This document shows positions 56 to 16,151 of a stretch of DNA of 64,000 bases, piece after piece (the stretch's first letter is position 1; each line of letters begins with the position of its first letter). A program made the position numbers and the translations under genes. The notes below the pieces were generated by a model. The model searched no databases. It was not told the DNA's origin and saw nothing but the letters and a program-made list of their open reading frames with translations. The stretch is from a phage, in assembly GCA_024875585.1 (NCBI GenBank), contig GCA_024875585.1_4107.1. The stretch is one strand, 5' to 3'.

Positions 56-92
56 AAATAATAATATATTATATGTTAAAGGAGGGCACACG

Positions 93-1334: not shown

Positions 1335-1339
1335 TAACA

Positions 1340-1375
1340 AAAAGGTTGACTTCGGTCAGCCTTTTTTGTTATCAT
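1340..1375 (+). promoter_or_regulatory. bifunctional terminator hairpin / promoter (TTGACT across loop)
   Basis: aaaaggttgac-ttcg-gtcagcctttttt stem-loop with T-run; TTGACT(1346-1351)-18nt-TATCAT. Confidence 0.55.
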
Positions 1376-1400
1376 AGCTTTCCTAACTACAAAGGATGAC

Positions 1401-2045
1401 GTGATGACTAAGCAAGAAATATTCAAAACATTAATTGACATTTTACGTTCATCTAAAACTCGTTGTGCAATGGAGTTTGATATTCCTTACGCTGAACGAG
1501 TCATCTTTCCACAAGTAAAAGAGGCAGGGCTTACTTTACTTGGTATGGGGATGTACTCTGTAGTAGTTGAACATAAAAACTATCCAGGTCGTGCATTTAA
1601 AGTAACCACGTCACGATGGGATGGTTTTCGTGCTTATGCAAAGTACTGTATTGATAACACAGGAACTAAGTTTCTTCCTGTAATATACAGTGCAAATGAA
1701 CAAGGAAACTTTGGATGGTATGAAATGGATAAGTACTACCCTATCATTAAACAAAAAAATAATTATGATGACTTTGTTAGTACTAAAATTGGAGATTTGT
1801 ATTCGTATGCACATGCTGGTCAGCACGTAACTTCAGTGAATGAACTGCGTGGAAATTCAGAAGAGATTGCAATTGCAACTGTTGTAGCTAACATAATGAA
1901 AGAGTTTCATGGTCGTTTTGTACCAGACATTCATTCCAGTAATGTAATGATGGATAAAGATGGAAATTTATTCATCACTGACCCTATTTCGTGTGATGTA
2001 CGTCGAGAAATACCAATCACTGAAGAAGACCCAATTTTTTATTGA
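1401..2045 (+). CDS. atypical minimal protein-kinase-fold protein (RIO/Bud32/Kdo-kinase-like)
   Basis: G-loop-like LGMGMYSVV, AFKV lysine, catalytic-loop-like PDIHSSNVMM, LFITD in DFG position; ATG at 1404 after aaagga (GTG at 1401 also possible). Confidence 0.6.
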   Translation: MMTKQEIFKTLIDILRSSKTRCAMEFDIPYAERVIFPQVKEAGLTLLGMGMYSVVVEHKNYPGRAFKVTTSRWDGFRAYAKYCIDNTGTKFLPVIYSANEQGNFGWYEMDKYYPIIKQKNNYDDFVSTKIGDLYSYAHAGQHVTSVNELRGNSEEIAIATVVANIMKEFHGRFVPDIHSSNVMMDKDGNLFITDPISCDVRREIPITEEDPIFY

Positions 2046-2108
2046 CAGAACTTGTGTTCTGGTGTATATTAAGTGAATTATAAACAAATTGTGACACAGG
2101 ATTAAATC

Positions 2109-2390
2109 ATGCGTTCATTTGAAAACTTAATAGGTAAACTTCTTTTATCTGAAATTAGTGAAGACGTTAAGGAATTATGCAAATCAAAAAGTTACATTCA
2201 TTTGGATGAACTGTTTGTTAAGTACGGAGAGATTAGTTTTAAATCATTATTTGTTTTTACTATGAAAGTACATAGTTTAAAGTACTTCGATTTAAGTTAT
2301 AAAAATGGTCAACCAAATCTATATCATATGTATTATCTCAAGAATATAGAAGAAGCTCATATCTTATTTTCTGAATATCTGAAGGTATAA
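2109..2390 (+). CDS. hypothetical protein (93 aa)
   Basis: ORF in + strand gene train, abuts next gene. Confidence 0.6.
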   Translation: MRSFENLIGKLLLSEISEDVKELCKSKSYIHLDELFVKYGEISFKSLFVFTMKVHSLKYFDLSYKNGQPNLYHMYYLKNIEEAHILFSEYLKV

Positions 2391-2391
2391 A

Positions 2392-2730
2392 ATGGAACAA
2401 TATTTTGAATTAGTTAATAAAGTGTCATTCTATGTAGTGTCATTGGTTTGGGTTTATTTCATGTTTTGCTACATTATTGCATTCTTCCGATATACTACTT
2501 TATATGAACGTATCTATTATGATGCACCAATATCATTCTTGGTGTTCTGTGCATGTACCTGGGGAATATTAGAAGTACTGATATGTGGATATAGTACTGA
2601 TGAATTAAATCTGGTATCGGTATTGACTGGGTTATCACTTGGTGTTATGATATCTTTCTTTCCAGTATGGTTGTTCTTTGAACTGATCCATCGCATTGAT
2701 GTATGGCGTTCTAATATCCCTGAAAAATAA
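2392..2730 (+). CDS. family D small multi-pass membrane protein
   Basis: hydrophobic helices; basic tail ...WRSNIPEK; tandem with two paralogs. Confidence 0.75.
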   Translation: MEQYFELVNKVSFYVVSLVWVYFMFCYIIAFFRYTTLYERIYYDAPISFLVFCACTWGILEVLICGYSTDELNLVSVLTGLSLGVMISFFPVWLFFELIHRIDVWRSNIPEK

Positions 2731-2739
2731 GGATTGATA

Positions 2740-3081
2740 ATGATTTATTACACTAACGTGTTTGCCTATGCTGTTGCTTGCATTTACATTGTTTACTTCT
2801 TATTTGGTGGAGTGCTTTGCTTCTTTAAGTACAAAACACTGTTTAATAGGATGTATCCAAATCATCCTATTGTAGTTGTACTTTTGATTCTTTCTCTTTC
2901 CCAAATAATCGTTGAAACTACATTGGGTATCAGTAGTGTACATTATAGTTTTGGCACTATAGTAATTATTACTATGCTTATTGCATACATTTTAGTACTT
3001 GGATATGGTATATTTGGTAATGTTGGAATGAAAATGTATCATCGAATTAAAACCTTACGTGATAATCTACCGGAGCGTTAA
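2740..3081 (+). CDS. family D small multi-pass membrane protein
   Basis: ATG 2740 after aagga (track start 2734 is TTG); tail ...LRDNLPER. Confidence 0.75.
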   Translation: MIYYTNVFAYAVACIYIVYFLFGGVLCFFKYKTLFNRMYPNHPIVVVLLILSLSQIIVETTLGISSVHYSFGTIVIITMLIAYILVLGYGIFGNVGMKMYHRIKTLRDNLPER

Positions 3082-3082
3082 G

Positions 3083-3427
3083 ATGTATAATTTAAACCTA
3101 ATCTCATATATTATAACAACCCTGTTTACATTTTATGTCTATGTTGGTATAATCCTACTGTACTTTAAATTTTATAAAGTGTTTAACCGTTTCTATCCTT
3201 CAATGGAGAATGAGTTCTTCTTTGTGTTGTACGTCTGCTACACGCTAATGGCTACTTGTTTCACTGTAGTTGATGGTATCATTGGTATTAAAGCAGATGG
3301 ACCAAATGGTAGTACGCTGGTTGCATTTATTCTTACCGGATTCTTGGCAACTTATATTACCTTCATTTCAACATGGTCAGTGGTTGAATTTCTCTTACGA
3401 CTACGAAAGAATATGCCGAATCGATAG
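3083..3427 (+). CDS. family D small multi-pass membrane protein
   Basis: ATG 3083 after ggag; tail ...LRKNMPNR; track start 3059 overlaps previous gene. Confidence 0.75.
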   Translation: MYNLNLISYIITTLFTFYVYVGIILLYFKFYKVFNRFYPSMENEFFFVLYVCYTLMATCFTVVDGIIGIKADGPNGSTLVAFILTGFLATYITFISTWSVVEFLLRLRKNMPNR

Positions 3428-3436
3428 GAGACATAT

Positions 3437-3694
3437 ATGTTTGCATTGCGTAACAAAAACACTAAAGAATTATTATGTATTGATACAGTATGGGATTGTG
3501 CGGGTTCAACTACTGTTCTTGAAGAAGGTACTGGATATTGCGTGTTTGTTGTTCATGATAGGAATGAACTCGAATCATTGCTTGCTGAGTTTAATGCTGG
3601 TGGTAATCCTAACAGTACTAAATTCCCTGTGATTGTTAATCCAGCACCACCTGGTTCTTATGAAATTCTAACACTATGTGAGATGGATAAGTAA
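3437..3694 (+). CDS. hypothetical protein (85 aa), paralog of 5579..5848
   Basis: SD aggag; MFALRNKNTKE.. / ..VVHDRNELESLL resembles MYALYNKEKKQ.. / ..YVHDDVSVLQRLL. Confidence 0.7.
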   Translation: MFALRNKNTKELLCIDTVWDCAGSTTVLEEGTGYCVFVVHDRNELESLLAEFNAGGNPNSTKFPVIVNPAPPGSYEILTLCEMDK

Positions 3695-4074
3695 TGCGTC
3701 AAATGTACAAAGTGACCGAGCTAAACAAGCGTCTAGTTAAACAATCAATGTTCGAGGATAAAGAGTCTTATTATAACTTTAAACGTGCTGTAGAGGCTGC
3801 TATCCACATTCAGAAGCTTAAAGAACGTGGTTGTATTATTTTGGAAAATGGATCGGAAGTTGTATCGGATGACTTTAGTGTAGCGTTTGATGTTTCACCT
3901 GATGGGACGCTATCAATGCCCCGCTTAGGAACTGGAAACATGACTGTTTGGGTTGGCTTCACTATGGGTAATGTACCAGGCACAGTGTATGTAGATGATA
4001 TGGAGTTGAAAGAAAGCTTCAAAAACTTATCTTATCTTGAACCACAATACGCACATGAAATGAATTTATTTTGA
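3694..4074 (+). CDS. hypothetical protein (126 aa)
   Basis: TAATG overlap with upstream gene. Confidence 0.7.
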   Translation: MRQMYKVTELNKRLVKQSMFEDKESYYNFKRAVEAAIHIQKLKERGCIILENGSEVVSDDFSVAFDVSPDGTLSMPRLGTGNMTVWVGFTMGNVPGTVYVDDMELKESFKNLSYLEPQYAHEMNLF

Positions 4075-4075
4075 G

Positions 4076-4132
4076 TTGACAAACACATTCAGTACTGTAT
4101 AATGCTTATCAAGGGGATGAACTTCTCATCCC
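4076..4132 (+). promoter_or_regulatory. sigma70-type promoter + leader hairpin
   Basis: TTGACA(4076-81)-16nt-TATAAT(4098-4103) with cagtacTG; hairpin GGGGATGA-acttc-TCATCCC 4113-4132. Confidence 0.6.
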
Positions 4133-4150
4133 TACAATCGAGGAACGACC

Positions 4151-4705
4151 ATGATTACTTTTAAGAAAACTGCTAACCACATCCATGAAATCTACATTAA
4201 CGGTCACAAAGCTGGCCTTCTTCGTTTACTCAGCCATCATCCTGATGTTATTGTATCTGATAATGAACCCAAAGATTGGCGTGTCTTTTTCTTTGGGAAG
4301 TACAGTGATTTTCAAGTATCAAATCTGAAGAACATTCGTTCAGTATGCACGTTAACTGAAATTAAAGAAAAGTTAGTAAAAGCATTGAAAACTAATCCAG
4401 ATGCAGTTCTTCCACCAGATAACTTTGTAGAGAAAGGTTATGCCTTAGCTCATTTCAAAGATGGCACTATTCAATCTATCAGCACTGCATATGAATATCA
4501 ATGGACTGAGTACTTCACTTATGGCTCCCGTGAAACTTTGATGGCTTCACGTAGTGAATTGGAAGAAGTAATAACTATTATAAATGAACGTGAACGTCAT
4601 TTATATGATAAACCTGAAATGTGGAGTTCAAATTACATTGACCGTATTGACTATGTTATTATGACTCCAATCTTTGACACTGCTTACTATGATTCTTTGA
4701 AATAA
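4151..4705 (+). CDS. hypothetical protein (184 aa)
   Basis: SD gaggaa; clean ORF. Confidence 0.8.
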   Translation: MITFKKTANHIHEIYINGHKAGLLRLLSHHPDVIVSDNEPKDWRVFFFGKYSDFQVSNLKNIRSVCTLTEIKEKLVKALKTNPDAVLPPDNFVEKGYALAHFKDGTIQSISTAYEYQWTEYFTYGSRETLMASRSELEEVITIINERERHLYDKPEMWSSNYIDRIDYVIMTPIFDTAYYDSLK

Positions 4706-4716
4706 GGATAACTTAT

Positions 4717-4893
4717 ATGAAACTACGTACTCGTAATCGTTTGATGGATGCACTGTACCACGAACAATGTACAATGAATGATGTAAAGCGTCAGTTAATG
4801 TATACATATCAGTTACCAGCCCGTGCTGCGAAACAACGTTCCAAAGAATTACTGAAAGAAGCTATCGAGTACTGGGAATCTGATTCGTACTAA
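4717..4893 (+). CDS. hypothetical small protein (58 aa; below ORF-track cutoff)
   Basis: ATG 4717 after taaggat; MKLRTRNRLMDALYHEQ...EYWESDSY; fills an otherwise empty gap. Confidence 0.5.
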   Translation: MKLRTRNRLMDALYHEQCTMNDVKRQLMYTYQLPARAAKQRSKELLKEAIEYWESDSY

Positions 4894-4932
4894 TATTACG
4901 TGATATGTCACGTTAATTAAGTGAGACTATAA

Positions 4933-5193
4933 ATGAAAATTTTATTAGTTCTAATACTACTAATACTACTAATTGTTTTACCATTTACTTTAGTATCTCC
5001 TGAACTTGCATGGAATGTGTTTGTGTACTTAGTATGTACTATTGCGGTAAATGGTATCTTGTTCTTAGTTCTATTCATAAATGGAATAGGACACGGGGGT
5101 GGGTGGACCAGTACTGCTGATATTGTACATAAAACCACTATGTCTTTATTTGTAGTGTGGAATTTATTCTGGACTTGGTTTGTGTTCTTCTAA
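4933..5193 (+). CDS. small membrane protein (86 aa)
   Basis: very hydrophobic, 3 predicted TM runs; stop directly abuts next ATG. Confidence 0.65.
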   Translation: MKILLVLILLILLIVLPFTLVSPELAWNVFVYLVCTIAVNGILFLVLFINGIGHGGGWTSTADIVHKTTMSLFVVWNLFWTWFVFF

Positions 5194-5577
5194 ATGAAAA
5201 AAAATATGAATATAGATTTGAAAGGTGCAACCAGAACTGTTATCCTCATTGGTGAATACGCTATCAAGATTCCAACCTTCAAAAGCTGGAAGTTATTCTT
5301 AACGGGAATGATAGCTAACCTAAATGAACGTTCGTGGATGCAGTACTCCAATCGTAGTGACAGTAGTATCTGTCCTACGTTGTGGTCATCATGTACTGGA
5401 CTAATAACTGTACAGAAACGTTGTAAGCCAGTACAACATAGGGGTTTATTTTGGGTGGAGTTGTGTGCTTTAGCATTGAATTCTGAGTTAAGTATTGACT
5501 TCTTCTATTCAGATGCGAAGCCAGAAAACTTTGGGTATCTGGGTGGTAAGTTAGTTAAACTTGATTATGGAGATTAA
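5194..5577 (+). CDS. minimal kinase-fold protein ending right after the DFG-like motif
   Basis: GATRTVILIGEYAIKIP (G-loop + Lys), SDAKPENFGY (D-x-K-P-x-N catalytic loop), KLDYGD (DFG-like) then stop. Confidence 0.55.
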   Translation: MKKNMNIDLKGATRTVILIGEYAIKIPTFKSWKLFLTGMIANLNERSWMQYSNRSDSSICPTLWSSCTGLITVQKRCKPVQHRGLFWVELCALALNSELSIDFFYSDAKPENFGYLGGKLVKLDYGD

Positions 5578-5578
5578 T

Positions 5579-5848
5579 ATGTACGCATTGTATAATAAAG
5601 AAAAGAAACAATTTGCTAAGGTTGAAATTTCGATTGATACATTTGATATGTTGGAGTACTGTATTGTAACGGACCCATGTGCTAACTTGTATTACGTTCA
5701 TGATGACGTATCAGTACTGCAACGATTGCTTGAGAGTTCAAAAAGTCAATGTCAGGGAATCCATGATGGTTCATCCTATGAAACTCCTGAGTGTTCATAT
5801 GGCTGTCTGGATGGATATGAGATTGTTAAGTTAGGGATCGTTGAATAA
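5579..5848 (+). CDS. hypothetical protein (89 aa), paralog of 3437..3694
   Basis: ATG 5579 after ggag; track start 5561 overlaps upstream gene. Confidence 0.65.
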   Translation: MYALYNKEKKQFAKVEISIDTFDMLEYCIVTDPCANLYYVHDDVSVLQRLLESSKSQCQGIHDGSSYETPECSYGCLDGYEIVKLGIVE

Positions 5849-5850
5849 AG

Positions 5851-5887
5851 AAAAGGGTTGACTTTAGTCAGCCCTTTTTTCTATAAT
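5851..5887 (+). promoter_or_regulatory. bifunctional terminator hairpin / promoter
   Basis: aaaagggttgac-ttta-gtcagcccttttt; TTGACT(5858-63)-18nt-TATAAT(5882-87); near-identical copy at 10530. Confidence 0.6.
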
Positions 5888-5915
5888 CATTTCATCGGAA
5901 CGGAAGGATGTTGAA

Positions 5916-6398
5916 ATGAACTATTTAGATTTAATTAATACGTATGTCATCAGCCCATATCTTAACGATGAAAGTATCAAATGTGTAGTATCTGTTGATA
6001 ATCATCCAAATGGTGCATTAGAACTATTCGGTGCAGGACAGATTAACAATCGTTGTGGGTATACTTTTGAGTACTTACCAGAAAGAGATGTATTTGGTTG
6101 TTATGACCACAAAATCAAAAAAGGTGCTATATGGGGTAATCACAAAGATATTGCACAATCTTCACTTTTCGAAGATCATAATGGATATATGTGGCGTTCT
6201 CTTGGTGCAGTCCTACTTGATATCGCCCGTAGATATAAAAAGCGTATAACTCTTACTTATACACATACAGTTGAATATAAAAATGAAGTACAAGTAGAAG
6301 ATGAAGAATTTTTTAAAAGTATCCCGTACATTGAATTCAACTTCCAAAACGGGTATGCTATATATCCTGATGATTTTATTGGTGAAAAATATTTTTAA
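5916..6398 (+). CDS. hypothetical protein (160 aa)
   Basis: SD ggaagga; clean ORF. Confidence 0.8.
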   Translation: MNYLDLINTYVISPYLNDESIKCVVSVDNHPNGALELFGAGQINNRCGYTFEYLPERDVFGCYDHKIKKGAIWGNHKDIAQSSLFEDHNGYMWRSLGAVLLDIARRYKKRITLTYTHTVEYKNEVQVEDEEFFKSIPYIEFNFQNGYAIYPDDFIGEKYF

Positions 6399-6405
6399 AA
6401 AATAT

Positions 6406-6433
6406 TTGAAAAGAAAAGAATAAGTGCTATAAT
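6406..6433 (+). promoter_or_regulatory. sigma70-type promoter
   Basis: TTGAAA(6406-11)-16nt-TATAAT(6428-33), then ttacatcaagacaac leader as at other promoters. Confidence 0.5.
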
Positions 6434-6489
6434 TATTACATCAAGACAACAAACACTAACATGTAAACGCTACTAATTAGGAGACACAC

Positions 6490-6900
6490 ATGATTAACAA
6501 ACATTTCGCAGTTTCTAAAACAGTAACCATCGATAACGAATGGGAAATTACTATTCTTAATGATCCTGCTCGTGGGTTGCTTGCAGAGAATCTTGTACAG
6601 AAATACATCGACTGTAAGTCTGAATTGATTATTCACGACCGTACCAAATTTCTTCTCATCAATGGCAAGAAGTGTAAAGTATTAGTATTCACGGATAAAA
6701 TGAGCCGTGCAGACATTATCACCAAATTGGTAAGTTCTTCACGTCACCGCCCAGGAGTTAACAAATCTATCGAAGAAGTTAAAGATATGAAGCCTGGTGA
6801 TTTATTCATTATTGCGGGTTTTGATTCTAAAACAAGAGAAATGTACATTTCAGAAATGTACACTAATGCTGAAATGCGTAACAAATTCTTCTCTAACTAA
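6490..6900 (+). CDS. hypothetical protein (136 aa)
   Basis: SD taggag; clean ORF. Confidence 0.75.
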   Translation: MINKHFAVSKTVTIDNEWEITILNDPARGLLAENLVQKYIDCKSELIIHDRTKFLLINGKKCKVLVFTDKMSRADIITKLVSSSRHRPGVNKSIEEVKDMKPGDLFIIAGFDSKTREMYISEMYTNAEMRNKFFSN

Positions 6901-6931
6901 TCAACCTAATTATGTATTATACAAATCTATA

Positions 6932-8149
6932 ATGGATAAAAATATGATCTTCGAAACAGAAAAAACTTTACTTGAAACTTATACTTTAGAAAATCTTGTA
7001 CAACTTAATCTGGCCCGTCCTGATATTCAACGAAACTGGCAATGGAAAAGTAATAATCAAAATAATCTTATAATTTCTATTCTAAAGAATTCACCAATTG
7101 GACAATTTTTGGTATGGAATGAAACTTCTTCAAATACAATGTACATTACTGATGGACGCCATCGTTATACTGTAATTTCAAACTTCATTAATAATAAGTT
7201 CCCAGTAACAGTTAAAACCGAAAGTGGAACCAAAGATTATTATTATGGTTCTGACGATCCAATCGAAGAAGAAAACATTTCACTAAAACTTGGTGGTAAA
7301 AGTAAGACTTGGAATTTCTTATCAAAAGAAGAGCGTAATGCTTTTCGCAATAAAGAAGTATCAGTAACATTTGTTCATACAGATGATGCTGAGAAGATTT
7401 CTGAAATGTTTATGGCTATCAACACTGCTTCATCTAATTTGTGTAAAGTAGACTTGCTGGTATGCAAGCACCACAAAAATGCATACATGAAACGTATTGA
7501 TAAACTATTTTCAATTGAGATTGAAAAAGATGACCAAATGGCAGTTCTAGTTAGCGATTTCTATCGTGCAATCGGACACTGTAATGTCAACGGTAATTAC
7601 GAGAAACATTTAGCTAAACTTAAAGCTAACCCAAAAGTTCAGAAGCGTGAATTTTTTGAGATGTATTTTATGGTACGAGCCTTCACCAAATTGTGTCGTG
7701 ATGCTTTAAACGATACATTGAATTCATATCGTATGCCTAAGATGAATAAACAAATTGAAGATGCTATTATTAGTACTGAATCACTGAGTGAACAGCAAGC
7801 TAACGCCGATTTTGTTCAGTTCGTGAATGCAGTTCGTGAGATGAACCTTGTATCTCCAATAAAAGATTTACAAAAGTTTCAATTCATCCACGAAGATATG
7901 AAGAATACCTTTAACAAGCGTCTTTTTTGTATCTTAATGGGATTATATTATGCTTACGGTACACGTTTACCATTGCATTTTCGTGATGTTTGGTGTGCCA
8001 TTTATAATGAAATGTCAGAAAAAAGTACTGAACTACCAACAAACGGGACTGATAGTTCTTCTGCTATTGTAGCTGGTATCCAATTGATTGAACCGTACTT
8101 TAGTTCAGCCTTTAATAATATTTCATTGAGTGCTCGCGTGGGAAAGTGA
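6932..8149 (+). CDS. DUF262 (ParB/Srx-fold, GmrSD N-terminal-like) domain protein
   Basis: PDIQRNWQW, LIISILKNSPIGQFLVW, ITDGRHRYTVISNFI match the DUF262 FQR..W / PIG / DGQQR pattern; start at first ATG after stop of 6490..6900. Confidence 0.7.
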   Translation: MDKNMIFETEKTLLETYTLENLVQLNLARPDIQRNWQWKSNNQNNLIISILKNSPIGQFLVWNETSSNTMYITDGRHRYTVISNFINNKFPVTVKTESGTKDYYYGSDDPIEEENISLKLGGKSKTWNFLSKEERNAFRNKEVSVTFVHTDDAEKISEMFMAINTASSNLCKVDLLVCKHHKNAYMKRIDKLFSIEIEKDDQMAVLVSDFYRAIGHCNVNGNYEKHLAKLKANPKVQKREFFEMYFMVRAFTKLCRDALNDTLNSYRMPKMNKQIEDAIISTESLSEQQANADFVQFVNAVREMNLVSPIKDLQKFQFIHEDMKNTFNKRLFCILMGLYYAYGTRLPLHFRDVWCAIYNEMSEKSTELPTNGTDSSSAIVAGIQLIEPYFSSAFNNISLSARVGK

Positions 8150-8358
8150 AAAATCGTGGAATACTAAATATTTCACAAAAACAATATATTTTGAAAAAAT
8201 ATCCCGTTTGTTATCTTTGTAAACAATTTATATTAGATACAGATAAACCACACTTTGATCATGTACAGTCATTGAAAAATGGTGGTAGTAATGACCTAGA
8301 AAATATTAGACCAACGCACCCCATTTGTAATTTACGCAAAGGTGCTAAAAGTATGTAG
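8146..8358 (+). CDS. HNH endonuclease (70 aa)
   Basis: CYLCKQ...HFDHVQSLKNGGSNDLENIRPTHPICNLRKG; GTGA start/stop overlap with DUF262 gene. Confidence 0.75.
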   Translation: MKNRGILNISQKQYILKKYPVCYLCKQFILDTDKPHFDHVQSLKNGGSNDLENIRPTHPICNLRKGAKSM

Positions 8359-8407
8359 AATAAAGACTCCCATTGACTGGGAGTCTTGTTATATTAAAAG
8401 GATTTAT

Positions 8408-9244
8408 ATGAGTATTAAAAATAAATTAGATCAGTATTATACAAAACCAGAGTATGCTGTAGATTGTTATACTAAATCATTAGAATTAATTTCTGAACGT
8501 ATGGATATTAGTTCATCGTATTTTATGGAACCATGTGTCGGTACTGGTTCATTTTATCTACAATTTCCTGAAGAACGTCGTTTTGGTTGTGATATCGAAC
8601 CAGTACATCTTGATGAAAATGTTATACATTCTGATTTTTTGCTTGAGTTCGGGATTAATGCAAGAAGTAAAGGTGAGCCAATAATTGTTATAAGTAATCC
8701 ACCATTTGGTAAGATTTCTTCTTTGGCTATCAAATTCTTTAATAAATGTGCATCTATGCCTGAAGTGAAATATATTTGTTTTATTGTACCTAAGACATTC
8801 CGTAAAGTTGCAACACAGAATAAACTAAACGAGATGTTCCATCTTGTTCTTGATGAAGATTCACCACATGATGCTTTTATTCTGCATGGCGAACCGCATC
8901 ATGTACCATGTGTATTTCAGATATGGGAGCGTAGAGATGAAGTTCGTGAACAACACGAAATTAAAAATAAATCAAACTACTTCCAGTTTTGTACTAAGGA
9001 TGAAGCGGATATTTACATTAAGCGTGTAGGAACTAAAGCTGGTGAGTATGCTGCACCTGGTAAAGAACACAAAGATGCAAGTATGTACTACATTAAAACT
9101 GATTATGTTGATGAAATTATTAGAATTTTGCAAAGTGAAGACTACATTGACGAGATTAAACGTATACGCAAAACCACCGCTGGTGTATTCTGTGTATCTA
9201 AATCTGAACTTGTACTGAACATTGAAAAACGTTTGAATTTTTAA
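8408..9244 (+). CDS. N6-adenine DNA methyltransferase (gamma-type motif order)
   Basis: YYTKPE (motif X-like), EPCVGTGSF (motif I), VISNPPFG (motif IV NPPF); ATG 8408 after aaagga. Confidence 0.75.
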   Translation: MSIKNKLDQYYTKPEYAVDCYTKSLELISERMDISSSYFMEPCVGTGSFYLQFPEERRFGCDIEPVHLDENVIHSDFLLEFGINARSKGEPIIVISNPPFGKISSLAIKFFNKCASMPEVKYICFIVPKTFRKVATQNKLNEMFHLVLDEDSPHDAFILHGEPHHVPCVFQIWERRDEVREQHEIKNKSNYFQFCTKDEADIYIKRVGTKAGEYAAPGKEHKDASMYYIKTDYVDEIIRILQSEDYIDEIKRIRKTTAGVFCVSKSELVLNIEKRLNF

Positions 9245-9250
9245 AATACA

Positions 9251-9283
9251 GGGTTGACTTAGGTCAGCCCTTTTTGCTAAAAT
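9251..9283 (+). promoter_or_regulatory. bifunctional terminator hairpin / promoter
   Basis: gggttgac-ttag-gtcagccc+ttttt; TTGACT(9254-59)-18nt-TAAAAT. Confidence 0.55.
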
Positions 9284-9311
9284 TCTTTCATCGAAACGTG
9301 AGGATGAATAC

Positions 9312-9827
9312 ATGACACGCATTAACTTAGTACACGTTAAAGAACTTGCAGACCAACATCTGATGGCTGAATATCGTGAACTACCACGTGTATTTGGTGC
9401 TGTACAAAAACACGTTCAAGCATGTAAGCGTGTACGTGATTTCAAAATTAACAGTACTTATCTGTTAGGTTCAGGTCATGTGACATTCTTTTACGACAAG
9501 TTGCTGTACTTACAGAAGCGTCATATCGATATTGTCAACGAATGTTTGCGTCGTGGTATGAAGATTCAAAATACTGAAGTAAACGACATTAGCAGCTTCC
9601 CTGCTGAGTTTTGTAATGACTATGTACCATCGGAGTCAGAGATTGAAATGTCTCGTAAGCGTTTGATTGAGAAGCTTCAGATGAAGCCTACGTGGTATAA
9701 GTTTACTGATGTTGAATGTCCACAGTACGTTACAGATATGCTGAACGTAAGTAGTAAGTTCGAATATAGTACGGCTATGTTAGACGAAATTGAAGAACAA
9801 ATCAAAGATGAAATGAATAATTATTAA
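9312..9827 (+). CDS. denV: endonuclease V, pyrimidine-dimer DNA glycosylase/AP lyase
   Basis: [50 protein letters not shown] is near-colinear with T4 DenV as I recall it; about 35 extra acidic C-terminal residues. Confidence 0.92.
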
Positions 9828-9865
9828 AGGAAAGGATTGACTTCGGTCACATAAAGGAACATAAC

Positions 9866-10060
9866 ATGTTATTAGTATATTCAAAGCGTTTCTGGATTTC
9901 TTTTATTGTACTATCGCTAATCGGCTTCGGTGTGAGTATACTCTTTTCGTGGGATGAATTGGGCACATGGTATTATGAAGTCCCGTGGTACATGAAGATA
10001 GCTCCTTGTTACGCGGCATTGTTCGTATCATTCCTTATTGTTGTCTTCAGCGAGGATTAG
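9866..10060 (+). CDS. small membrane protein (64 aa)
   Basis: two hydrophobic runs; SD aaagga. Confidence 0.6.
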   Translation: MLLVYSKRFWISFIVLSLIGFGVSILFSWDELGTWYYEVPWYMKIAPCYAALFVSFLIVVFSED

Positions 10061-10112
10061 TTGATGTAGTATGTTCTACATCAAAAGTATTTGGATATTT
10101 GAGATATAAACA

Positions 10113-10141
10113 TTGACACATGTTCTATCTTTCTGTATTAT
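10113..10141 (+). promoter_or_regulatory. sigma70-type promoter
   Basis: TTGACA(10113-18)-17nt-TATTAT(10136-41) with upstream TG. Confidence 0.6.
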
Positions 10142-10167
10142 GTACATCACCAAATGAGGAATACAAC

Positions 10168-10527
10168 ATGGCATCTTTAAGTGAAATCGCGGAATACAAT
10201 CCACTAACAATCTCAACAATTCAACGTACAAAAACTTTTTATTTCCGTCCTGTTGATGGATGGAAACGTGGAATGAATAGTGACTATCGAGTACTGGAAG
10301 ATTCACTCATCGAGCGTATCAACTCTGAACTACAGAAGTATGAAGGTGTTAAAGTTGTACGTTCAACTTCTCGTTATTTTGAGTACTATATTGAGTCTTT
10401 AACAGTAAATGAAAACTCATCATCATCTGTGGATAACACTGATATTCTTCGTAATGCAGTTGGTCTGTTATGCAACATTGCAGAAGAAATGGGATTAACT
10501 ATCACAACAATGAGTGAAATAGAATAA
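10168..10527 (+). CDS. hypothetical protein (119 aa)
   Basis: ATG 10168 after tgaggaa; the track start 10120 lies inside the promoter. Confidence 0.75.
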   Translation: MASLSEIAEYNPLTISTIQRTKTFYFRPVDGWKRGMNSDYRVLEDSLIERINSELQKYEGVKVVRSTSRYFEYYIESLTVNENSSSSVDNTDILRNAVGLLCNIAEEMGLTITTMSEIE

Positions 10528-10529
10528 CA

Positions 10530-10567
10530 AAAAAGGGTTGACTTTAGTCAGCCCTTTTTGCTATAAT
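10530..10567 (+). promoter_or_regulatory. bifunctional terminator hairpin / promoter
   Basis: aaaagggttgac-ttta-gtcagccctttt; TTGACT(10538-43)-18nt-TATAAT(10562-67). Confidence 0.6.
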
Positions 10568-10595
10568 CATTTCATCAACTGATGAGGATAACGAA

Positions 10596-11369
10596 ATGAA
10601 CCGTACAGAGAAAGCACTCCAAATTGAAAAGAACTTCAACTCCATGATGGCAGCACTGGAATGTCTTCTTGATACACAAACTAACTCGATCAACTCGCTG
10701 ATCGTTTCTGGTAAAGGTGGTGTTGGTAAAACTTACAATGTTGACCAACGGTTACAGAAAGCTGATGACAACTTTGAAATCGACTACAAGAAAATCAGTG
10801 GTAAAGTAACTACTGTAGGTCTGTACGAAGCACTGTATCGTTCACGTCATGCTGCTTCAGTACTGTTACTTGACGACGTTGATATCTTCTCTGATGAAAC
10901 GAATATTGATTTGCTTAAAGCTGTATTGGATACTTCTGAGAAGCGTGTAGTGTCTTATGCTACATCTGCGAAGTACCTGGAACAGCAGGGTATCCCTAAA
11001 CAGTTTGAATTCCGTGGTAAAGTAATCTTTCTGACTAACAAAAATCTGTCACAGATTGCTAAAGGTAAAAGCAGTTTAGCACCACACATTGATGCACTGA
11101 TTACTCGTAGTATCTTTGTTGACCTGCAACTGTTCACCAACGAAGAAGTTATGATTCACATTGAGAATATCATGAACAAAACTAACATCCTTGAGAACAA
11201 TGGTGTTAACAAAAATGGTTGTAAAGCAATTTTGAACTGGATGTTGAGTAATGAAGATCGTCTGCGTTCACCTTCACTGCGTATGCCAGTACTGATCGCT
11301 GGACTGTATAATAAATTCCCATATGATTGGGAGTCAATGGCAGAGAATATGTTCCTTGAGAAAAATTGA
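10596..11369 (+). CDS. AAA+ family P-loop ATPase
   Basis: Walker A SGKGGVGKT, Walker B VLLLDDVD, sensor-1-like VIFLTN. Confidence 0.7.
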   Translation: MNRTEKALQIEKNFNSMMAALECLLDTQTNSINSLIVSGKGGVGKTYNVDQRLQKADDNFEIDYKKISGKVTTVGLYEALYRSRHAASVLLLDDVDIFSDETNIDLLKAVLDTSEKRVVSYATSAKYLEQQGIPKQFEFRGKVIFLTNKNLSQIAKGKSSLAPHIDALITRSIFVDLQLFTNEEVMIHIENIMNKTNILENNGVNKNGCKAILNWMLSNEDRLRSPSLRMPVLIAGLYNKFPYDWESMAENMFLEKN

Positions 11370-11425
11370 TCACGAGCATTAACCGAACTAACAATGTGTA
11401 GTATTTAATTTACTGGAGACACCCA

Positions 11426-11767
11426 ATGTGTGAGTTTTTTGAATCTAATATAATGCTTGGTATTACATTGATATACATGTATGTATTCTTGTTTTATCAT
11501 TCAATTGTAATTAGTCTTTGGTATTTTAAAAGGAAAATGGTTTTTAAATTATATTCATATGATAATGTATTCTTAGTTATATATAGTATCATACAAGGTG
11601 GGTTTGTTCTATTTGGTATTATGACGTATGTGATTTATAGATTACAAATTGATAACACACCATACATTACACAATATGTTGTGTTTTCAGGACTAATCGT
11701 ATGGTTATTGGTGTGTATAATTTATTTTATAATTAAAGCTCGTGATAAAATTAAAGGGGATTTCTAA
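11426..11767 (+). CDS. family D small multi-pass membrane protein
   Basis: MCEFFESNIMLGITLIYM..; tail ARDKIKGDF; first of 8 tandem paralogs. Confidence 0.8.
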   Translation: MCEFFESNIMLGITLIYMYVFLFYHSIVISLWYFKRKMVFKLYSYDNVFLVIYSIIQGGFVLFGIMTYVIYRLQIDNTPYITQYVVFSGLIVWLLVCIIYFIIKARDKIKGDF

Positions 11768-12105
11768 TGTTAGAATTTTTTAAATCAGATGTGATGCTTA
11801 GTATTACATTGATTTATATGTTTGGTTTTTTATTTTATCATCTACTAGTTGTAGTTCTATGGTATTTTAAAAAGAAAATAGTTTTCAAACTGTATCCACC
11901 TAGTAACATTTTATTGTTTCTTTACACACTTATTCAAGGTATGTTTGTTATTATTGGTGTTATCACACACTTAATCTATTGTTATAATCCACATTTAAAA
12001 TCAATAACACAATATATTGTTTTCTTTGGGTTGTTCATTTGGTTAATTATATACTTAATTGAACTCATTATTCATAGTAGAGAAAAAATTCGTGGAGACT
12101 TCTAA
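11767..12105 (+). CDS. family D small multi-pass membrane protein
   Basis: MLEFFKSDVMLSITLIYM..; tail SREKIRGDF; TAATG junction. Confidence 0.8.
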   Translation: MLEFFKSDVMLSITLIYMFGFLFYHLLVVVLWYFKKKIVFKLYPPSNILLFLYTLIQGMFVIIGVITHLIYCYNPHLKSITQYIVFFGLFIWLIIYLIELIIHSREKIRGDF

Positions 12106-12452
12106 TGTTTGAAGCTTATCTTGATTTTTTAAGAAATAGTCCAGTTGCACATTCACTTGCAGGAATTATACTAACAACTTATATCACATTTTGGGGAGTT
12201 ATGTTTCTAGGATGGTATTTTAAACGACAATTCTATAAACGTAATGGCGAACATTTTATGAATTCTGTCATTAATCAATCGTTGTTTGCATCAACATTTA
12301 TAGCATCTATTTTAGCCATACTCACAGGAAAGGTTCTGCCAGCGTATTCAGTAACTTACGGAACACTTTGGATGATATGTTTAACTTTTATATTGACCAT
12401 TAAAATTTGTTGTGTTATGATTGAACTTCGAAATAAGATACCGGAGGAATGA
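12105..12452 (+). CDS. family D small multi-pass membrane protein
   Basis: tail LRNKIPEE; TAATG junction. Confidence 0.8.
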   Translation: MFEAYLDFLRNSPVAHSLAGIILTTYITFWGVMFLGWYFKRQFYKRNGEHFMNSVINQSLFASTFIASILAILTGKVLPAYSVTYGTLWMICLTFILTIKICCVMIELRNKIPEE

Positions 12453-12787
12453 TGGAGTATTTTATTGATTTACTGCCGTGGTATATGAAAGTGAGTATTT
12501 TATACTATATTATTAGTACTGGATTCTACTTCCTGATGTGGTTTTTTAAACGACCAATTTCAGTGTACATTGCTAATAACATGCTGCAATTAAAATTACA
12601 CGCATGGTTTTTTATGGCGATGTTTATGCCTATTATTCACTACTCAATGATTAGTATAGGTTTACGTTCTAATGGTGAACCAATTGTATTAGTATTCTAT
12701 TGGGGTTCAACTATAGTATATTTCGGTTTGCTATTGTTCCCCATCATTCATAAATTACGTGCTAAAGTTCCTGATGCGAGGTATTAA
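12449..12787 (+). CDS. family D small multi-pass membrane protein
   Basis: tail LRAKVPDARY; ATGA overlap. Confidence 0.8.
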   Translation: MMEYFIDLLPWYMKVSILYYIISTGFYFLMWFFKRPISVYIANNMLQLKLHAWFFMAMFMPIIHYSMISIGLRSNGEPIVLVFYWGSTIVYFGLLLFPIIHKLRAKVPDARY

Positions 12788-13101
12788 TGGATATCGTAAC
12801 ATTGATCTACACGTTGTATTCATTCTATTTCATTATGTGTTGGGTTGGATTTTTATTTGTACTCAAGATGTTTGATTATGTTGAAAAACAGATAAAAGAT
12901 TTTTGTATTCCTTTTATCGGTTCAACCATTATTAGTGTTTCTTGTGTTTATTTTTTAGTGTTTGATCCACCAGATAACACTGCGATGATTGACTTCATGT
13001 TACTACCAACCACTGTAATTTTTTTATGTAGTCTGATGCCACCTATTAGTCGTGGATTAACTGAATTTAGACGCAAACAAAAGCGTAAAAGAGGGATGTA
13101 A
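12787..13101 (+). CDS. family D small multi-pass membrane protein
   Basis: tail EFRRKQKRKRGM; TAATG junction. Confidence 0.75.
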   Translation: MDIVTLIYTLYSFYFIMCWVGFLFVLKMFDYVEKQIKDFCIPFIGSTIISVSCVYFLVFDPPDNTAMIDFMLLPTTVIFLCSLMPPISRGLTEFRRKQKRKRGM

Positions 13102-13469
13102 TGGAAATTGCTCTTATTATCTTAACTGCTATGCTGTTTATTAGTACATTGGTTATAATTGGCAAATTCTTTTGTGTATCATTTTTAGAAACGGTATACG
13201 ATGAAATTGCTGATGATTATGAATTACACGCCGGATTTTTCATTACGTATTGGCTTAGTTTATTTTGTCTAGTCATTGTTTGGATTTTACATATCTTTAA
13301 ATGGGGTATGGTGGACGGTGATCCTATCATGGCAATTATTGTTCTAGTGTTTGGTATCCTAGGTGGTGCAGTACATAATATGATGGTTATTTGGCAAACT
13401 GTTCAATGTGTATTGGTTCCTTATTTCGAAAAAATGCACAGTACAATTAAAAAACGTAAACGAGGTTAG
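13101..13469 (+). CDS. family D small multi-pass membrane protein
   Basis: tail HSTIKKRKRG; TAATG junction. Confidence 0.75.
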   Translation: MEIALIILTAMLFISTLVIIGKFFCVSFLETVYDEIADDYELHAGFFITYWLSLFCLVIVWILHIFKWGMVDGDPIMAIIVLVFGILGGAVHNMMVIWQTVQCVLVPYFEKMHSTIKKRKRG

Positions 13470-13470
13470 T

Positions 13471-13833
13471 ATGAACGGGATTGAATTATCTTTCATTGGT
13501 CAAATACTAGTAATGGTGAATACTTTCTTTTTCTCACTTATTGCATTAATGTGCATTGGAAAGTATTTTCATAAACAACCATTCTCAAATTTATATGATG
13601 TAATAAAAAAGAAATATAGTCCTGCACATAGTGTACTTATTTGCAGTTTCAATTTTGGTTTTGTTGTATTAATAATTGGATTGTTAACATCAACGTCAAA
13701 TGTAATGATCTTCGGTCTTATGATCTGTTCATTGGTATTAGCAGTAATTGTATGTTGTTTAGTACTGCACCTTGTAGTACTATTATATATAAAGCTCGTT
13801 GAAATCCATCAACGTTTAGGTATGAGGAAATAA
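13471..13833 (+). CDS. family D small multi-pass membrane protein
   Basis: ATG 13471 right after previous stop (track start 13408 overlaps); tail HQRLGMRK. Confidence 0.75.
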   Translation: MNGIELSFIGQILVMVNTFFFSLIALMCIGKYFHKQPFSNLYDVIKKKYSPAHSVLICSFNFGFVVLIIGLLTSTSNVMIFGLMICSLVLAVIVCCLVLHLVVLLYIKLVEIHQRLGMRK

Positions 13834-13834
13834 T

Positions 13835-14206
13835 ATGAGTTACCGTGAGATATTTTCCATTATTTCAATTATTATGTTCAGTGCTGGGACATTGGTGTGG
13901 GTATTATATTTTTTCTGTGTATCACCAGTGTATAATATGTTATGTAATATTAAATCAAGTTCTGGATATATGACTTTTATGATCTTTATGGGATATTATT
14001 GTCTAAGCATTTTAGGTGTTGTTTTGGTTGTTATATTTGATGTAGGGCCAAATAAGGATGGTCTGAAAATGTATGAGTTAATAACTATGTTTGGGTGTAT
14101 GATACCAACTGCACTAATGTTTGTAGCTATTGGTGCTGGATGTATAAAGTTATACAATTATTTAAAATCCATTCATCATTCCATTCATAATAAACGTATG
14201 TCATAA
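13835..14206 (+). CDS. family D small multi-pass membrane protein
   Basis: tail HHSIHNKRMS; last of the array; hairpin ccagtact-gaat-agtactgg follows (14214-14233). Confidence 0.75.
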   Translation: MSYREIFSIISIIMFSAGTLVWVLYFFCVSPVYNMLCNIKSSSGYMTFMIFMGYYCLSILGVVLVVIFDVGPNKDGLKMYELITMFGCMIPTALMFVAIGAGCIKLYNYLKSIHHSIHNKRMS

Positions 14207-14247
14207 TAAAAATCCAGTACTGAATAGTACTGGACTAATAAGGAGTT

Positions 14248-14898
14248 ATGATGAAATCAAAATTAGGTTTGTTTTATGGAAACTACTTCATTAAACAGCG
14301 TAAATTCATAAAAAAATACTTCTCCACAGAGAAATCTAGTCCTATAATTTTTAAAAGACCAAAATATAATTTTTACTTAGCAGGTGCTAAACAGTCTAAG
14401 AAATTCATTACATTTTTAAATAAAAACAAAATTAAAGCTTCTTATGTTGAAACTAGAAAGAACTCATCGATAATTCCTGGTGATTTCATTGAATACGGAT
14501 GTTTCAATATTAAGTACAATGATAGCACATACTGTATGGATATTGATTGCAATACATCAAATCTTTTTAACATTGTAATAAATCCATCGAAACAATATAA
14601 TGTTTATGGTGATTCAATTATCAAATTAATAAAAAACAAAGATTGGTTTGATTTTGAAATAAATGTTTTAGATGAAAATTATGATGAAGTTCCAGTTAAC
14701 CCTGAAATATGTGATATATTAAACAGTTTAAAAGGTAGTAGCTACAATATACCATCTGATTTAATGTTTCAGTACTCTTTAATACATAAAGATATTGAAC
14801 ATTATATTGTGTGTGCTAAAATCTTGAATTATCTGTATGATGAATTTAAAATGAGTTCTAAAATAACAGCATATACTCTTTATAATATTTCTATATAA
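14248..14898 (+). CDS. hypothetical protein (216 aa), distant family B member
   Basis: SD aaggag; C-terminal SDLMFQYSLIHKD matches the family B xxxFQxSL(I/V)xxD core. Confidence 0.75.
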   Translation: MMKSKLGLFYGNYFIKQRKFIKKYFSTEKSSPIIFKRPKYNFYLAGAKQSKKFITFLNKNKIKASYVETRKNSSIIPGDFIEYGCFNIKYNDSTYCMDIDCNTSNLFNIVINPSKQYNVYGDSIIKLIKNKDWFDFEINVLDENYDEVPVNPEICDILNSLKGSSYNIPSDLMFQYSLIHKDIEHYIVCAKILNYLYDEFKMSSKITAYTLYNISI

Positions 14899-14908
14899 TT
14901 TAAAATAT

Positions 14909-14936
14909 TAAAGCCAGTACGAGAGCACTGGCTTTA
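14909..14936. terminator. bidirectional terminator between convergent genes
   Basis: taaagccagt-acgagagc-actggcttta, A/T runs on both sides. Confidence 0.6.
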
Positions 14937-14939
14937 ATA

Positions 14940-16085
14940 TTATTTTTTCCAAGGAAGTAACGAAGTTGGAATCTTGATAGGTATATTTGATGCAACAACA
15001 TCAGGAAAATTTGCATCTCCACAAACATACAAATTATCGATTTCGTCTATCAATAATGTATAGTTGTAACTTCTACAAAAACCACTTAAGACTCTTCCCT
15101 CTAATGCAGATAAATTCATTTCAGTGAATTGAGTGATATATGTTTCATTTGAACCAACACCACATTGACCATTAGCATTTATACCACAAGTAAGCAATTT
15201 ATTATTGTTTTGAATTACACATGATGGTCCAGCAAGGTTCGTACCTAGTTCACCTACAACATTAACTTCACCTTTTAATGATAAATTTGGGATCACTGTA
15301 CTCATTGGGACTCGAGATGTATTTCCGACACCTGCTTGCCCTGAGCCATTAGTGGATGCTACTTTAACAGTACCGTCATTAAGAAAAATATAAGATGTTT
15401 CGATTGTATTAACTGCTTGAGTAGCTGATGTTATTGACGTATCCTGTTTGAATTTAAGTACATTTGTCGTTGTTGAACCAGAGATAAATGTAGCACCTGC
15501 GTACCAATATGTTCCATCCTGGAGTACTAAACCAGTACTTCTAATTGAACACCCAGCACTTCGAACATTTTCTATATGACTATATGTAAAGGTTGATACG
15601 ATTGAAGATTCACCATTACCGAACACCCCACCAGTACCTGCACCACAGAAAAACCATTTACCGTTTTTCAAAAATACACGCATACAAGCAGAAATAACCA
15701 CACTATCAATATCACTTGCAGTTACACCAAAATCGGTAAAGAAATGAGTTATATCAATCCAATTACCACCAGTATTTGATGGGAGATGTGGAATTACAAC
15801 TCTAGTCCCTGTGTACCAGATTGTATCATCATCTTTAATAACAAGCGTACCTTGAACACCACCCCAATACCTGGTTACATTAGTATTAACAAGTGTCCAC
15901 TCATTAGATGATTCCGTTGAGCCATTACCACCTTGACCATATGATGATGAACCGCACCAGTATAAATTGCCATTTTTATTTAAATAAAATTTTGCATCAG
16001 CCGAACATTGTAATCTGTATTTGAATACAGTTTTTGGTGCTGGTGCAATATTTGCATACTTAATCATTCTTCCAAAAGGTAACAT
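14940..16085 (-). CDS. RCC1-like repeat (beta-propeller) protein, paralog 1
   Basis: N-terminus MLPFGRMIKYAN; repeats LYWCGSSSYGQGGNGS, WFFCGAGTGGVFGNGES, LLTCGINANGQCGVGSNE. Confidence 0.75.
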   Translation of the reverse strand: MLPFGRMIKYANIAPAPKTVFKYRLQCSADAKFYLNKNGNLYWCGSSSYGQGGNGSTESSNEWTLVNTNVTRYWGGVQGTLVIKDDDTIWYTGTRVVIPHLPSNTGGNWIDITHFFTDFGVTASDIDSVVISACMRVFLKNGKWFFCGAGTGGVFGNGESSIVSTFTYSHIENVRSAGCSIRSTGLVLQDGTYWYAGATFISGSTTTNVLKFKQDTSITSATQAVNTIETSYIFLNDGTVKVASTNGSGQAGVGNTSRVPMSTVIPNLSLKGEVNVVGELGTNLAGPSCVIQNNNKLLTCGINANGQCGVGSNETYITQFTEMNLSALEGRVLSGFCRSYNYTLLIDEIDNLYVCGDANFPDVVASNIPIKIPTSLLPWKK

Positions 16086-16151
16086 ATTTTCCTCCTTTAT
16101 TCATTATACTGTATTTAACCCAATTAAGAAAAGCCAGTATCAAGTACTGGT
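16086..16151 (-). promoter_or_regulatory. conserved upstream cassette (SD + TATAAT) plus terminator hairpin of the gene above
   Basis: minus-strand reading: ccagtacttgatactgg hairpin, ...cagTATAATgaataaaggaggaaaatATG; -10 at 16103-16108. Confidence 0.5.

Follow-up and report, generated by a model that had tools for sequence, protein, structure and literature searches.

Eleven small genes, here called D1 to D11, lie in two tandem blocks within a 64,000-nucleotide stretch of phage DNA (NCBI GenBank assembly GCA_024875585.1, contig GCA_024875585.1_4107.1), which we refer to as the window and whose first letter is position 1. Our analysis indicates that these genes very probably encode a phage-specific family of early, non-structural proteins of the host inner membrane, each with three transmembrane (TM) segments, a periplasmic N-terminus and a cytoplasmic C-terminus (N-out/C-in), and that they are organized in two coupled operons. 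By analogy with T4 Imm and HK97 gp15, we further propose an envelope role in which the variable hairpins of these proteins engage membrane-embedded targets; this second part is tentative and, taken on its own, doubtful. For the whole statement, description and mechanism together, we estimate a probability of roughly 0.4.

A preliminary description of the window, made from its letters and a list of its open reading frames (ORFs), had placed 11 paralogous membrane-protein genes in these two blocks. All 11 ORFs were found on the + strand at the positions given there, and with refined starts their products span the same range of 104-123 amino acids (aa). Block 1 consists of D1 (2392-2730, 112 aa), D2 (2740-3081, 113 aa) and D3 (3083-3427, 114 aa); block 2 consists of D4 (11426-11767, 113 aa), D5 (11767-12105, 112 aa), D6 (12105-12452, 115 aa), D7 (12449-12787, 112 aa), D8 (12787-13101, 104 aa), D9 (13101-13469, 122 aa), D10 (13471-13833, 120 aa) and D11 (13835-14206, 123 aa). 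A scan of all ATG-initiated ORFs identified D1-D11 as the only small ORFs with three TM segments in the window. Upstream of every start chosen here, at -6 to -11, there is a Shine-Dalgarno site. D3 almost certainly begins at ATG 3083 rather than GTG 3059, D10 almost certainly at ATG 13471 rather than GTG 13408, and D2 most likely at ATG 2740, with TTG 2734 possible.

The relationship among the 11 proteins is evident only at the level of sequence profiles. Pairwise BLASTP connects only D1-D2-D3 and D4-D5; the latter two proteins, whose shared N-terminus had been described correctly, are 54% identical (E = 1e-35 to 1e-41). PHROGs spreads the D genes over at least nine families, all annotated as unknown function or as a generic 'membrane protein', the orthologues falling into phrog_19285 (which contains D1), 19454, 19046, 27396, 33258, 26405, 27618, 16874 and 19792. 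Syntenic orthologues from phages 121Q, WPEC5, JNE01 and A4 and from Klebsiella phage RaK2 define eight orthogroups: S1 (D1-D3), S45 (D4 and D5), and S6, S7, S8, S9, S10 and S11, each named after its single D gene in the window. Aligning orthogroup profiles with hhalign yielded end-to-end alignments of 89-109 columns, with probabilities of 96.6% for S1-S45, 95.4% for S1-S6, 97.2% for S6-S7, 91.8% for S6-S8 and 91.9% for S9-S11; the super-clusters {S1, S45, S6, S7, S8} and {S9, S10, S11} were joined to each other at 96.3% (E = 2e-9, 107 columns). By contrast, none of the control alignments, made with column-reversed, composition-matched profiles, rose above 1.3%.

Searches with hidden Markov models (HMMs) agree with the profile alignments. 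When each genome in turn was left out of model building, 31 of the 32 members from the window, JNE01, A4 and RaK2 were assigned back to their own orthogroup (the sole exception, RaK2 ORF316, had S1 as its best match at 8e-05), and most members also matched other orthogroups secondarily, at 1e-10 to 1e-3. Within the window, an HMM of the whole family matched exactly D1-D11. It also recognised eight genes in the array of a metagenomic relative, which was independent and had played no part in training, whereas it passed over every other small TM ORF and gave no match in Xanthomonas phage XaC1. Together, the profile alignments measured against reversed controls, the matches across orthogroups and the specificity of the family HMM support the view that D1-D11 are one highly diverged paralogous family with a basic C-terminal tail, as had been proposed. 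Whereas PHROGs treats the orthologues as separate families, our comparison joins them as a single superfamily with a common architecture and common motifs.

Several candidates were set aside as non-members: JNE01 5121, JNE01 16121, A4 1311, A4 2062, and positions 4933-5193 and 9866-10060 of the window. The last two are further small hydrophobic ORFs on the + strand, in the interval that separates the blocks; they encode 86 aa with 2-3 TM segments and 64 aa with two, respectively, and neither is matched by the family HMM.

Kyte-Doolittle hydropathy gives exactly three TM segments in each D protein; the multi-pass character in the preliminary description thus holds, and its upper figure of four helices does not. 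An AlphaFold2 (AF2) model of D6 (predicted local distance difference test score, pLDDT, 86; predicted template modelling score, pTM, 0.63) agrees with this count, with a short N-terminal helix, TM1 at residues 13-38, a short loop helix, TM2 at residues 48-73, and a long TM3 continuing into a juxtamembrane helix at residues 80-110. The model of D11, which belongs to the other super-cluster, has the same layout of three long helices at a pLDDT of 76. Lysine and arginine together number 0.36 per protein in the N-terminus, 2.73 in loop 1, 0.64 in loop 2 and 4.36 in the C-terminal tail, a distribution from which the positive-inside rule predicts an N-out/C-in orientation. The D proteins are therefore predicted to sit in the host inner membrane with their basic tails facing the cytoplasm.

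Displaying conservation on this topology revealed a common anatomy: firstly, TM1 ends on its cytoplasmic side with a phenylalanine, present in 49 of 50 sequences, that has W/Y/F and K/C as neighbours; secondly, an R/H column near the C-terminus is present in all 50, with K/N and I/L columns also among the most informative; thirdly, the resulting motif, (R/H)-x-(K/N)-(I/L), ends an amphipathic juxtamembrane helix in which L/I residues ahead of the motif are spaced 4-3-4. Conservation is centred on TM1 and the cytoplasmic face, and the TM2-TM3 hairpin is variable. All 11 window proteins combine a length of ~100-130 aa with three TM segments, the aromatic-F-(K/C) signature, the C-terminal (R/H)-x-(K/N)-(I/L) motif and a place in a tandem array.

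The extreme C-termini carry a second layer of information. Every ending quoted in the preliminary description is correct (WRSNIPEK in D1, LRDNLPER in D2, LRKNMPNR in D3, LRNKIPEE in D6, LRAKVPDARY in D7, and KI(K/R)GDF as KIKGDF in D4 and KIRGDF in D5), and D8, D9, D10 and D11 end in FRRKQKRKRGM, MHSTIKKRKRG, IHQRLGMRK and IHHSIHNKRMS, respectively. The recurrence of the ending is thus genuine, with the qualification that its last 2-4 residues double as the Shine-Dalgarno site of the next gene: in D2 and D4-D10, the ribosome-binding sequence for the gene that follows is contained in the final 2-4 codons at the 3' end, through the codon pairs CCG GAG for PE, GGG GAT or GGA GAC for GD, and AGA GGG or CGA GGT for RG. 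These embedded sites imply that the extreme C-terminal residues are constrained at both the protein and the mRNA level. The R/H-x-K-I part of the ending falls outside the Shine-Dalgarno codons, and RaK2 ORF280 and A4_7662, which are uncoupled, single-copy members, retain a ...KLPER ending.

At the gene junctions, five overlaps of the kind first described were found, namely TAATG at D4/D5, D5/D6, D7/D8 and D8/D9 and ATGA at D6/D7; the other junctions, which had been included in that description, are instead short spacers of 1 nt (D2/D3, D9/D10 and D10/D11) or 3-9 nt (D1/D2). From this arrangement we infer that the two D blocks are translationally coupled operons.

Comparison with phage 121Q showed that the D genes are maintained by selection. 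The ratio of nonsynonymous to synonymous substitution rates (dN/dS, or omega) lies between 0.06 and 0.37 across all 11 (0.14 for D1, 0.06 for D2, 0.17 for D3 and 0.22 for D4), indicating that these are real genes under purifying selection. By region, omega is 0.15-0.17 in the N-terminus, TM1, loop 1 and the C-terminal tail and 0.30-0.36 in TM2-loop2-TM3, a segment with roughly double the variability of the remainder. We tested the variable hairpin for pervasive positive selection and, at these values, found none; the pattern in TM2-loop2-TM3 is one of relaxed constraint, not demonstrable positive selection.

The region is 94% identical at the nucleotide level to Escherichia phage UE-S1 and 86-90% identical to most other 121Q/PBECO4-type phages, which are ~350-kb jumbo myoviruses of the genus Asteriusvirus; the window derives from a phage of this type. 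In 121Q, the D genes are located at 106-116 kb and correspond to gp207-209 and gp224-232, and their counterparts are labelled 'hypothetical protein' in every annotated record. The 121Q orthologue of D8 is broken into gp228 and gp229 (121Q locus record 12646-12961), by a frameshift or a sequencing error, and the annotation of phAPEC6 leaves the D10 and D1 orthologues uncalled (gaps at 15741-16107 and 24991-25342 of the record).

The eight D types and their order are kept from Asteriusvirus to Alcyoneusvirus, save for two order changes in RaK2, where both S6 copies precede S45 and S11 precedes S10. Copy number varies within this frame: S1 has three members in the window, 121Q, WPEC5 and JNE01 and one in A4 and RaK2; S45 has two in the window and 121Q and one in WPEC5, phAPEC6, A4, JNE01 and RaK2; S6 has two in RaK2; and S8 has two in JNE01. 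D5 is a recent duplicate of D4. The family evolves fast: D proteins are only 28-53% identical to those of JNE01, as compared to 77-96% for flanking genes, and the best-conserved orthogroup, S7 (D7), is 37% identical to its RaK2 counterpart.

Database searches place narrow limits on the distribution of the family. With D7 as the query, tblastn returned 45 phage records, every one from a jumbo phage of Escherichia, Salmonella or Klebsiella. When 1.84e9 representative proteins were searched exhaustively with HMMER, 36 true clusters with the family motifs were recovered (89-127 aa, apart from one 56-aa fragment), and one extra match, P0023, was discarded as a repetitive artefact; querying a word index of 5.8e9 proteins with the family alignment brought up orthologues only. 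The D family is thus confined to Asteriusvirus and Alcyoneusvirus (RaK2) phages and their close metagenomic relatives. On one metagenomic contig (record L009, 69-1205) a small signal-peptide protein precedes two D-family genes, and in phage A4 (1311-2415) a weakly D-like gene with three TM segments, A4_1691, stands between small signal-peptide proteins; these arrangements hint at possible periplasmic partners of D-like proteins in some lineages.

The transcriptional context of the two blocks points to early expression. Block 1 is led by orf93 (2109-2390, + strand), which encodes a soluble 93-aa protein with no TM segment and no Pfam or family-HMM match, and an intergenic sigma-70 promoter-like site (2042-2070, + strand; TTGACA-17-TATATT, 11/12) lies upstream of orf93-D1-D2-D3. 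The first gene of the block-2 operon encodes an NrdC.10-like putative ATPase (10596-11369, + strand), which is not a family member and was recognized by 41% identity to T4 nrdC.10, the RaK2 annotation and a weak AAA_16 match. Upstream of this operon is a composite element (10536-10567, + strand) resembling the PeSL promoter-terminator cassettes known from T4-type phages (PMC2839356, PMC4122927): a hairpin, GGTTGACTTTAGTCAGCC, with a T-run and a -35 box (TTGACT) in its stem, followed by a -10 box (TATAAT), the promoter portion ahead of NrdC.10-like-D4...D11 spanning 10538-10567. The PeSL-like element occurs at six window sites on the + strand (1344-1367, 5856-5879, 9252-9275, 10536-10559, 34868-34891 and 38276-38299), against none expected by chance; a single site among these matches on the - strand as well, and there is in addition a truncated copy at ~9836. 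A class of element known from T4-type phages is thus seen here in a Rak2-like jumbo phage. The copies are intergenic, and their consensus, GGTTGACTTnrGTCAGCCyTTTTT...TATAAT, places the -35 box inside the terminator stem.

Between positions 1 and 16200, seven sigma-70-like sites score at least 11/12, all on the + strand and mostly intergenic, and the T4-type late motif TATAAATA is absent from 1-16000. Downstream, a palindromic hairpin at 14211-14236 directly follows the D11 stop codon and has no + strand T-run, and a strong intrinsic-terminator-like hairpin with a T-run (14904-14941, + strand) closes the + strand transcription unit after orf216. We infer that host RNA polymerase transcribes the D blocks, starting at near-consensus sigma-70 promoters of the PeSL type, and promoters of this class would make the D genes early. 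In the virion proteome of phAPEC6, the D orthologues gp012c-017c and gp028c-029c were not detected, consistent with the D products being non-structural.

Both arrays belong to an early region that is plastic and punctuated by PeSL-like elements; its other genes include those for a kinase, DenV and a GmrSD-like nuclease. In aa sequence, the NrdC.10-like gene is 96% identical to that of JNE01 but only 58% identical to that of 121Q, whereas D4-D11 are 77-95% identical to 121Q as compared to 35-53% to JNE01; this reversal implies that a recombination breakpoint falls within the 56 nt that precede D4 (spacer 11370-11425). In view of these discordant mosaic histories we rejected a functional coupling between the array and the NrdC.10-like ATPase, a link further undercut by the presence of the ATPase without the array in XaC1 and T4-like phages. 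A fixed association between block 1 and the protein kinase was likewise rejected, as the kinase-adjacent genes of the metagenomic relative encode unrelated soluble proteins.

A divergent metagenomic phage shows the same overall layout as the window, with an NrdC.10-like gene, ~11 tandem family members and then RCC1 genes on the opposite strand. In the window, genes with RCC1 repeats ('DNA condensation') form a large array that starts directly downstream, from 14940 on the - strand, and several of its orthologues in phAPEC6 (gp003, gp005-gp007, gp009 and gp010) are virion proteins by mass spectrometry. Between the blocks, positions 6932-9244 are an insertion relative to 121Q. It contains a gene for a GmrSD_N/DUF262-domain protein (Pfam E = 1e-17), overlapped by one for an HNH endonuclease of 70 aa (E = 2e-10), and a third ORF of ~280-300 aa that Pfam does not match; the phage may here carry a type-IV-restriction-like nuclease in split form.

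The D family does not map onto a known one. Scans of the window genes and 44 family members against Pfam, PHROGs, PADLOC and NCBIfam found no holin, Imm or defence-related family, in keeping with the earlier remark that no recognisable motif supports a particular role. Matches in Pfam, PADLOC and NCBIfam were scattered, below threshold and to unrelated TM families, and we treated them as composition noise; among them were three isolated PADLOC matches, each to 1 of 44 members (E = 0.002-0.035), and a match of Phage_holin_2 to 1 of 44 (metagenomic P0055) at 20.5 bits against a cutoff of 32. Imm_superinfect (PF14373) had no Pfam match in the 11 window genes or the 44 family members. At the level of structure, a fold search of BFVD returned only the query protein's own orthologue, Foldseek against the PDB gave E-values of at least 8, and a sequence-profile search of the PDB returned designed TM bundles only (E at least 0.17).

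How might such proteins act? By analogy, an Imm-like entry block or an envelope takeover is a plausible leading guess for the family, with a lysis device disfavoured. Channel or transport modulation, another role listed in the preliminary description, gained neither support nor contrary evidence from our analysis. In the proposed mechanism, D proteins would insert into the inner membrane soon after infection; their conserved TM1 and cytoplasmic face would serve insertion, oligomerisation or a common partner, and through its variable TM hairpin each paralogue would address a separate membrane-embedded target. As such targets, channel-forming tape-measure or ejection proteins of superinfecting phages would be the most plausible, by comparison with HK97 gp15 and with T4 Imm, which binds the tape-measure protein of the incoming phage and thereby blocks genome translocation (bioRxiv 10.64898/2026.03.06.709160); host inner-membrane proteins are the alternative. 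The array as a whole would then form a multi-specificity battery for envelope takeover or superinfection exclusion.

A number of points weigh against this proposal. Firstly, dN/dS is below 1 in every region and all eight paralogue types have been stably kept from one genus to the other, a pattern better suited to a hetero-oligomer or to fixed, non-redundant roles than to an arms-race battery. Secondly, the D family has no sequence, profile or fold relationship to T4 Imm or HK97 gp15, nor a sequence or fold link to any exclusion protein. Thirdly, the topology is predicted from hydropathy, the positive-inside rule and AF2, and the promoter class and timing are consensus predictions in a sequence whose total count of sigma-70-like sites is not enriched over shuffles. 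Fourthly, absence from the phAPEC6 virion is weak evidence, because mass spectrometry often misses small membrane proteins. Lastly, we found no description, transcriptome or phenotype for D-family genes in the literature. Indeed, the stable eight-type set, the coupling and the low omega fit a hetero-oligomer, or roles directed at host targets and anti-defence, almost as well.

The best-placed of the alternatives, though we consider it rather unlikely, is that the eight types are subunits of one hetero-oligomeric inner-membrane complex of fixed stoichiometry, which might form a channel or a scaffold, for example, or anchor phage machinery in the cytoplasm. Such a complex would account for the retention of eight orthogroups across genera, the tight translational coupling with Shine-Dalgarno sites inside upstream genes, the conserved TM1 and cytoplasmic face with heptad-like L/I spacing in the helix after TM3, and purifying selection throughout. 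Fixed stoichiometry, however, sits poorly with copy numbers that vary (S1 from 1 to 3; S45, S6 and S8 from 1 to 2), with the split D8 of 121Q, and with the physical and transcriptional separation of block 1 from block 2; nor does the adjacent NrdC.10-like ATPase, found without the array in XaC1 and T4, co-evolve with it.

Predicted early expression, an inner-membrane location and non-structural status would also suit anti-defence or host-takeover factors that neutralise host inner-membrane proteins (abortive-infection pores, FtsH-like proteases, transporters, or the division and cell-wall machinery) rather than incoming phages. The pairing of a variable TM hairpin with a conserved cytoplasmic face, and the position in a plastic PeSL-punctuated early region beside the kinase, DenV and the GmrSD-like nuclease, are compatible with this idea, but it is unlikely in our assessment: the D proteins resemble no known anti-defence protein and have no consistent PADLOC-related match, nothing points to a host target, and phages of E. 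coli, Salmonella and Klebsiella have all conserved the family although the defence repertoires of these hosts differ.

Holin or antiholin functions, which the preliminary description had listed among the possible roles, and lysis timing are improbable. The predicted architecture is class-I-holin-like (104-123 aa, three TM segments, N-out/C-in, basic C-terminal tail), one metagenomic member touches Phage_holin_2 below threshold (20.5 vs 32 bits), and a lack of homology does not exclude holins, because these are very diverse. Nonetheless, no Pfam or PHROGs holin family matches the window genes; the promoters are early-type sigma-70 sites with no late-type motif; and in 121Q the endolysin, gp532 (of the signal-arrest-release, or SAR, type according to the CBB paper), is encoded at 254 kb, ~140 kb from the D blocks, with no family member in 246-272 kb or in 285-325 kb. 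Moreover, eleven copies in eight conserved types are unlike any known holin system, and the D genes have no consistent dual-start motif.

That the 11 genes are not one family, their likeness arising from hydrophobic composition and from purine-rich Shine-Dalgarno sites in the C-termini, can be dismissed as very improbable: most pairwise BLAST E-values are indeed non-significant, PHROGs divides the genes among at least nine families and the terminal PE, GD and RG codons do double as Shine-Dalgarno sites, yet composition-matched reversed profiles reach at most 1.3% against 92-97% for real ones, the alignments extend from end to end (89-109 columns), the Shine-Dalgarno codons do not include the invariant F and R/H columns, RaK2 ORF280 and A4_7662 end in ...KLPER without downstream coupling, and the family HMM passes over other small TM ORFs at the same loci.

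The sequences of the D family were already public, although fragmented across PHROGs; what is new is the unified superfamily (at least nine PHROGs), the map of motifs and topology, the orthogroup structure, and the overlap between Shine-Dalgarno sites and protein C-termini. About 3.8 kb, or ~1% of a ~350-kb genome, is given to one family kept as eight types across two jumbo-phage genera. The preliminary description called this an unusually large investment in small membrane proteins, which is fair, if less striking for a jumbo phage of this size whose array is an ancient feature conserved in two genera. With these elements defined, the D family can be put to the test as a candidate for envelope takeover or superinfection exclusion in Rak2-like phages. 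Should the exclusion reading be true, it would predict interference between phages, with a bearing on the design of phage cocktails (several phages carrying the family are in development for therapy), and it would extend the Imm/gp15 paradigm to multi-gene batteries. Should it be wrong, the D family is still a clean example of translational coupling imprinting Shine-Dalgarno sites onto protein C-termini. On a broader and distinctly speculative view, which we hold to be unlikely, the conserved TM1 and cytoplasmic module with its eight diversified hairpins would constitute a new envelope-control system, built either as a hetero-oligomer of eight subunits or as a broad-spectrum immunity battery whose paralogues would each block the membrane-channel step of a different class of competing phage; if true, such a multi-paralogue system would be a novel kind of phage envelope control with no homologue beyond these jumbo phages.

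Among known systems, T4 Imm (PF14373) and HK97 gp15 resemble the D proteins in being small, early inner-membrane phage proteins with a periplasmic N-terminus and without an enzymatic domain, features that on the D side are predicted. T4 Imm, however, is a single gene of 83-94 aa, whereas the D family comprises 11 genes of eight types with three TM segments and a distinct cytoplasmic motif. Class I holins of the lambda S105 and P22 gp13 type share with the predicted D proteins a length of ~105-120 aa, three TM segments, the N-out/C-in orientation and a basic cytoplasmic C-terminus; they differ in that the D genes have early-type promoters, lie far from the endolysin gene, form multi-copy conserved types and lack the dual-start motif. 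Finally, the ORFs of the T4-type hyperplastic regions, bounded by PeSL cassettes, recall the D arrays in their plastic early setting, their PeSL-like motifs and their exchange of cassettes, as at the mosaic boundary between NrdC.10 and the array. Those ORFs are mostly unrelated, single, and come and go (PMC2839356, PMC4122927), whereas the D array is a coherent eight-member set inherited across two genera.

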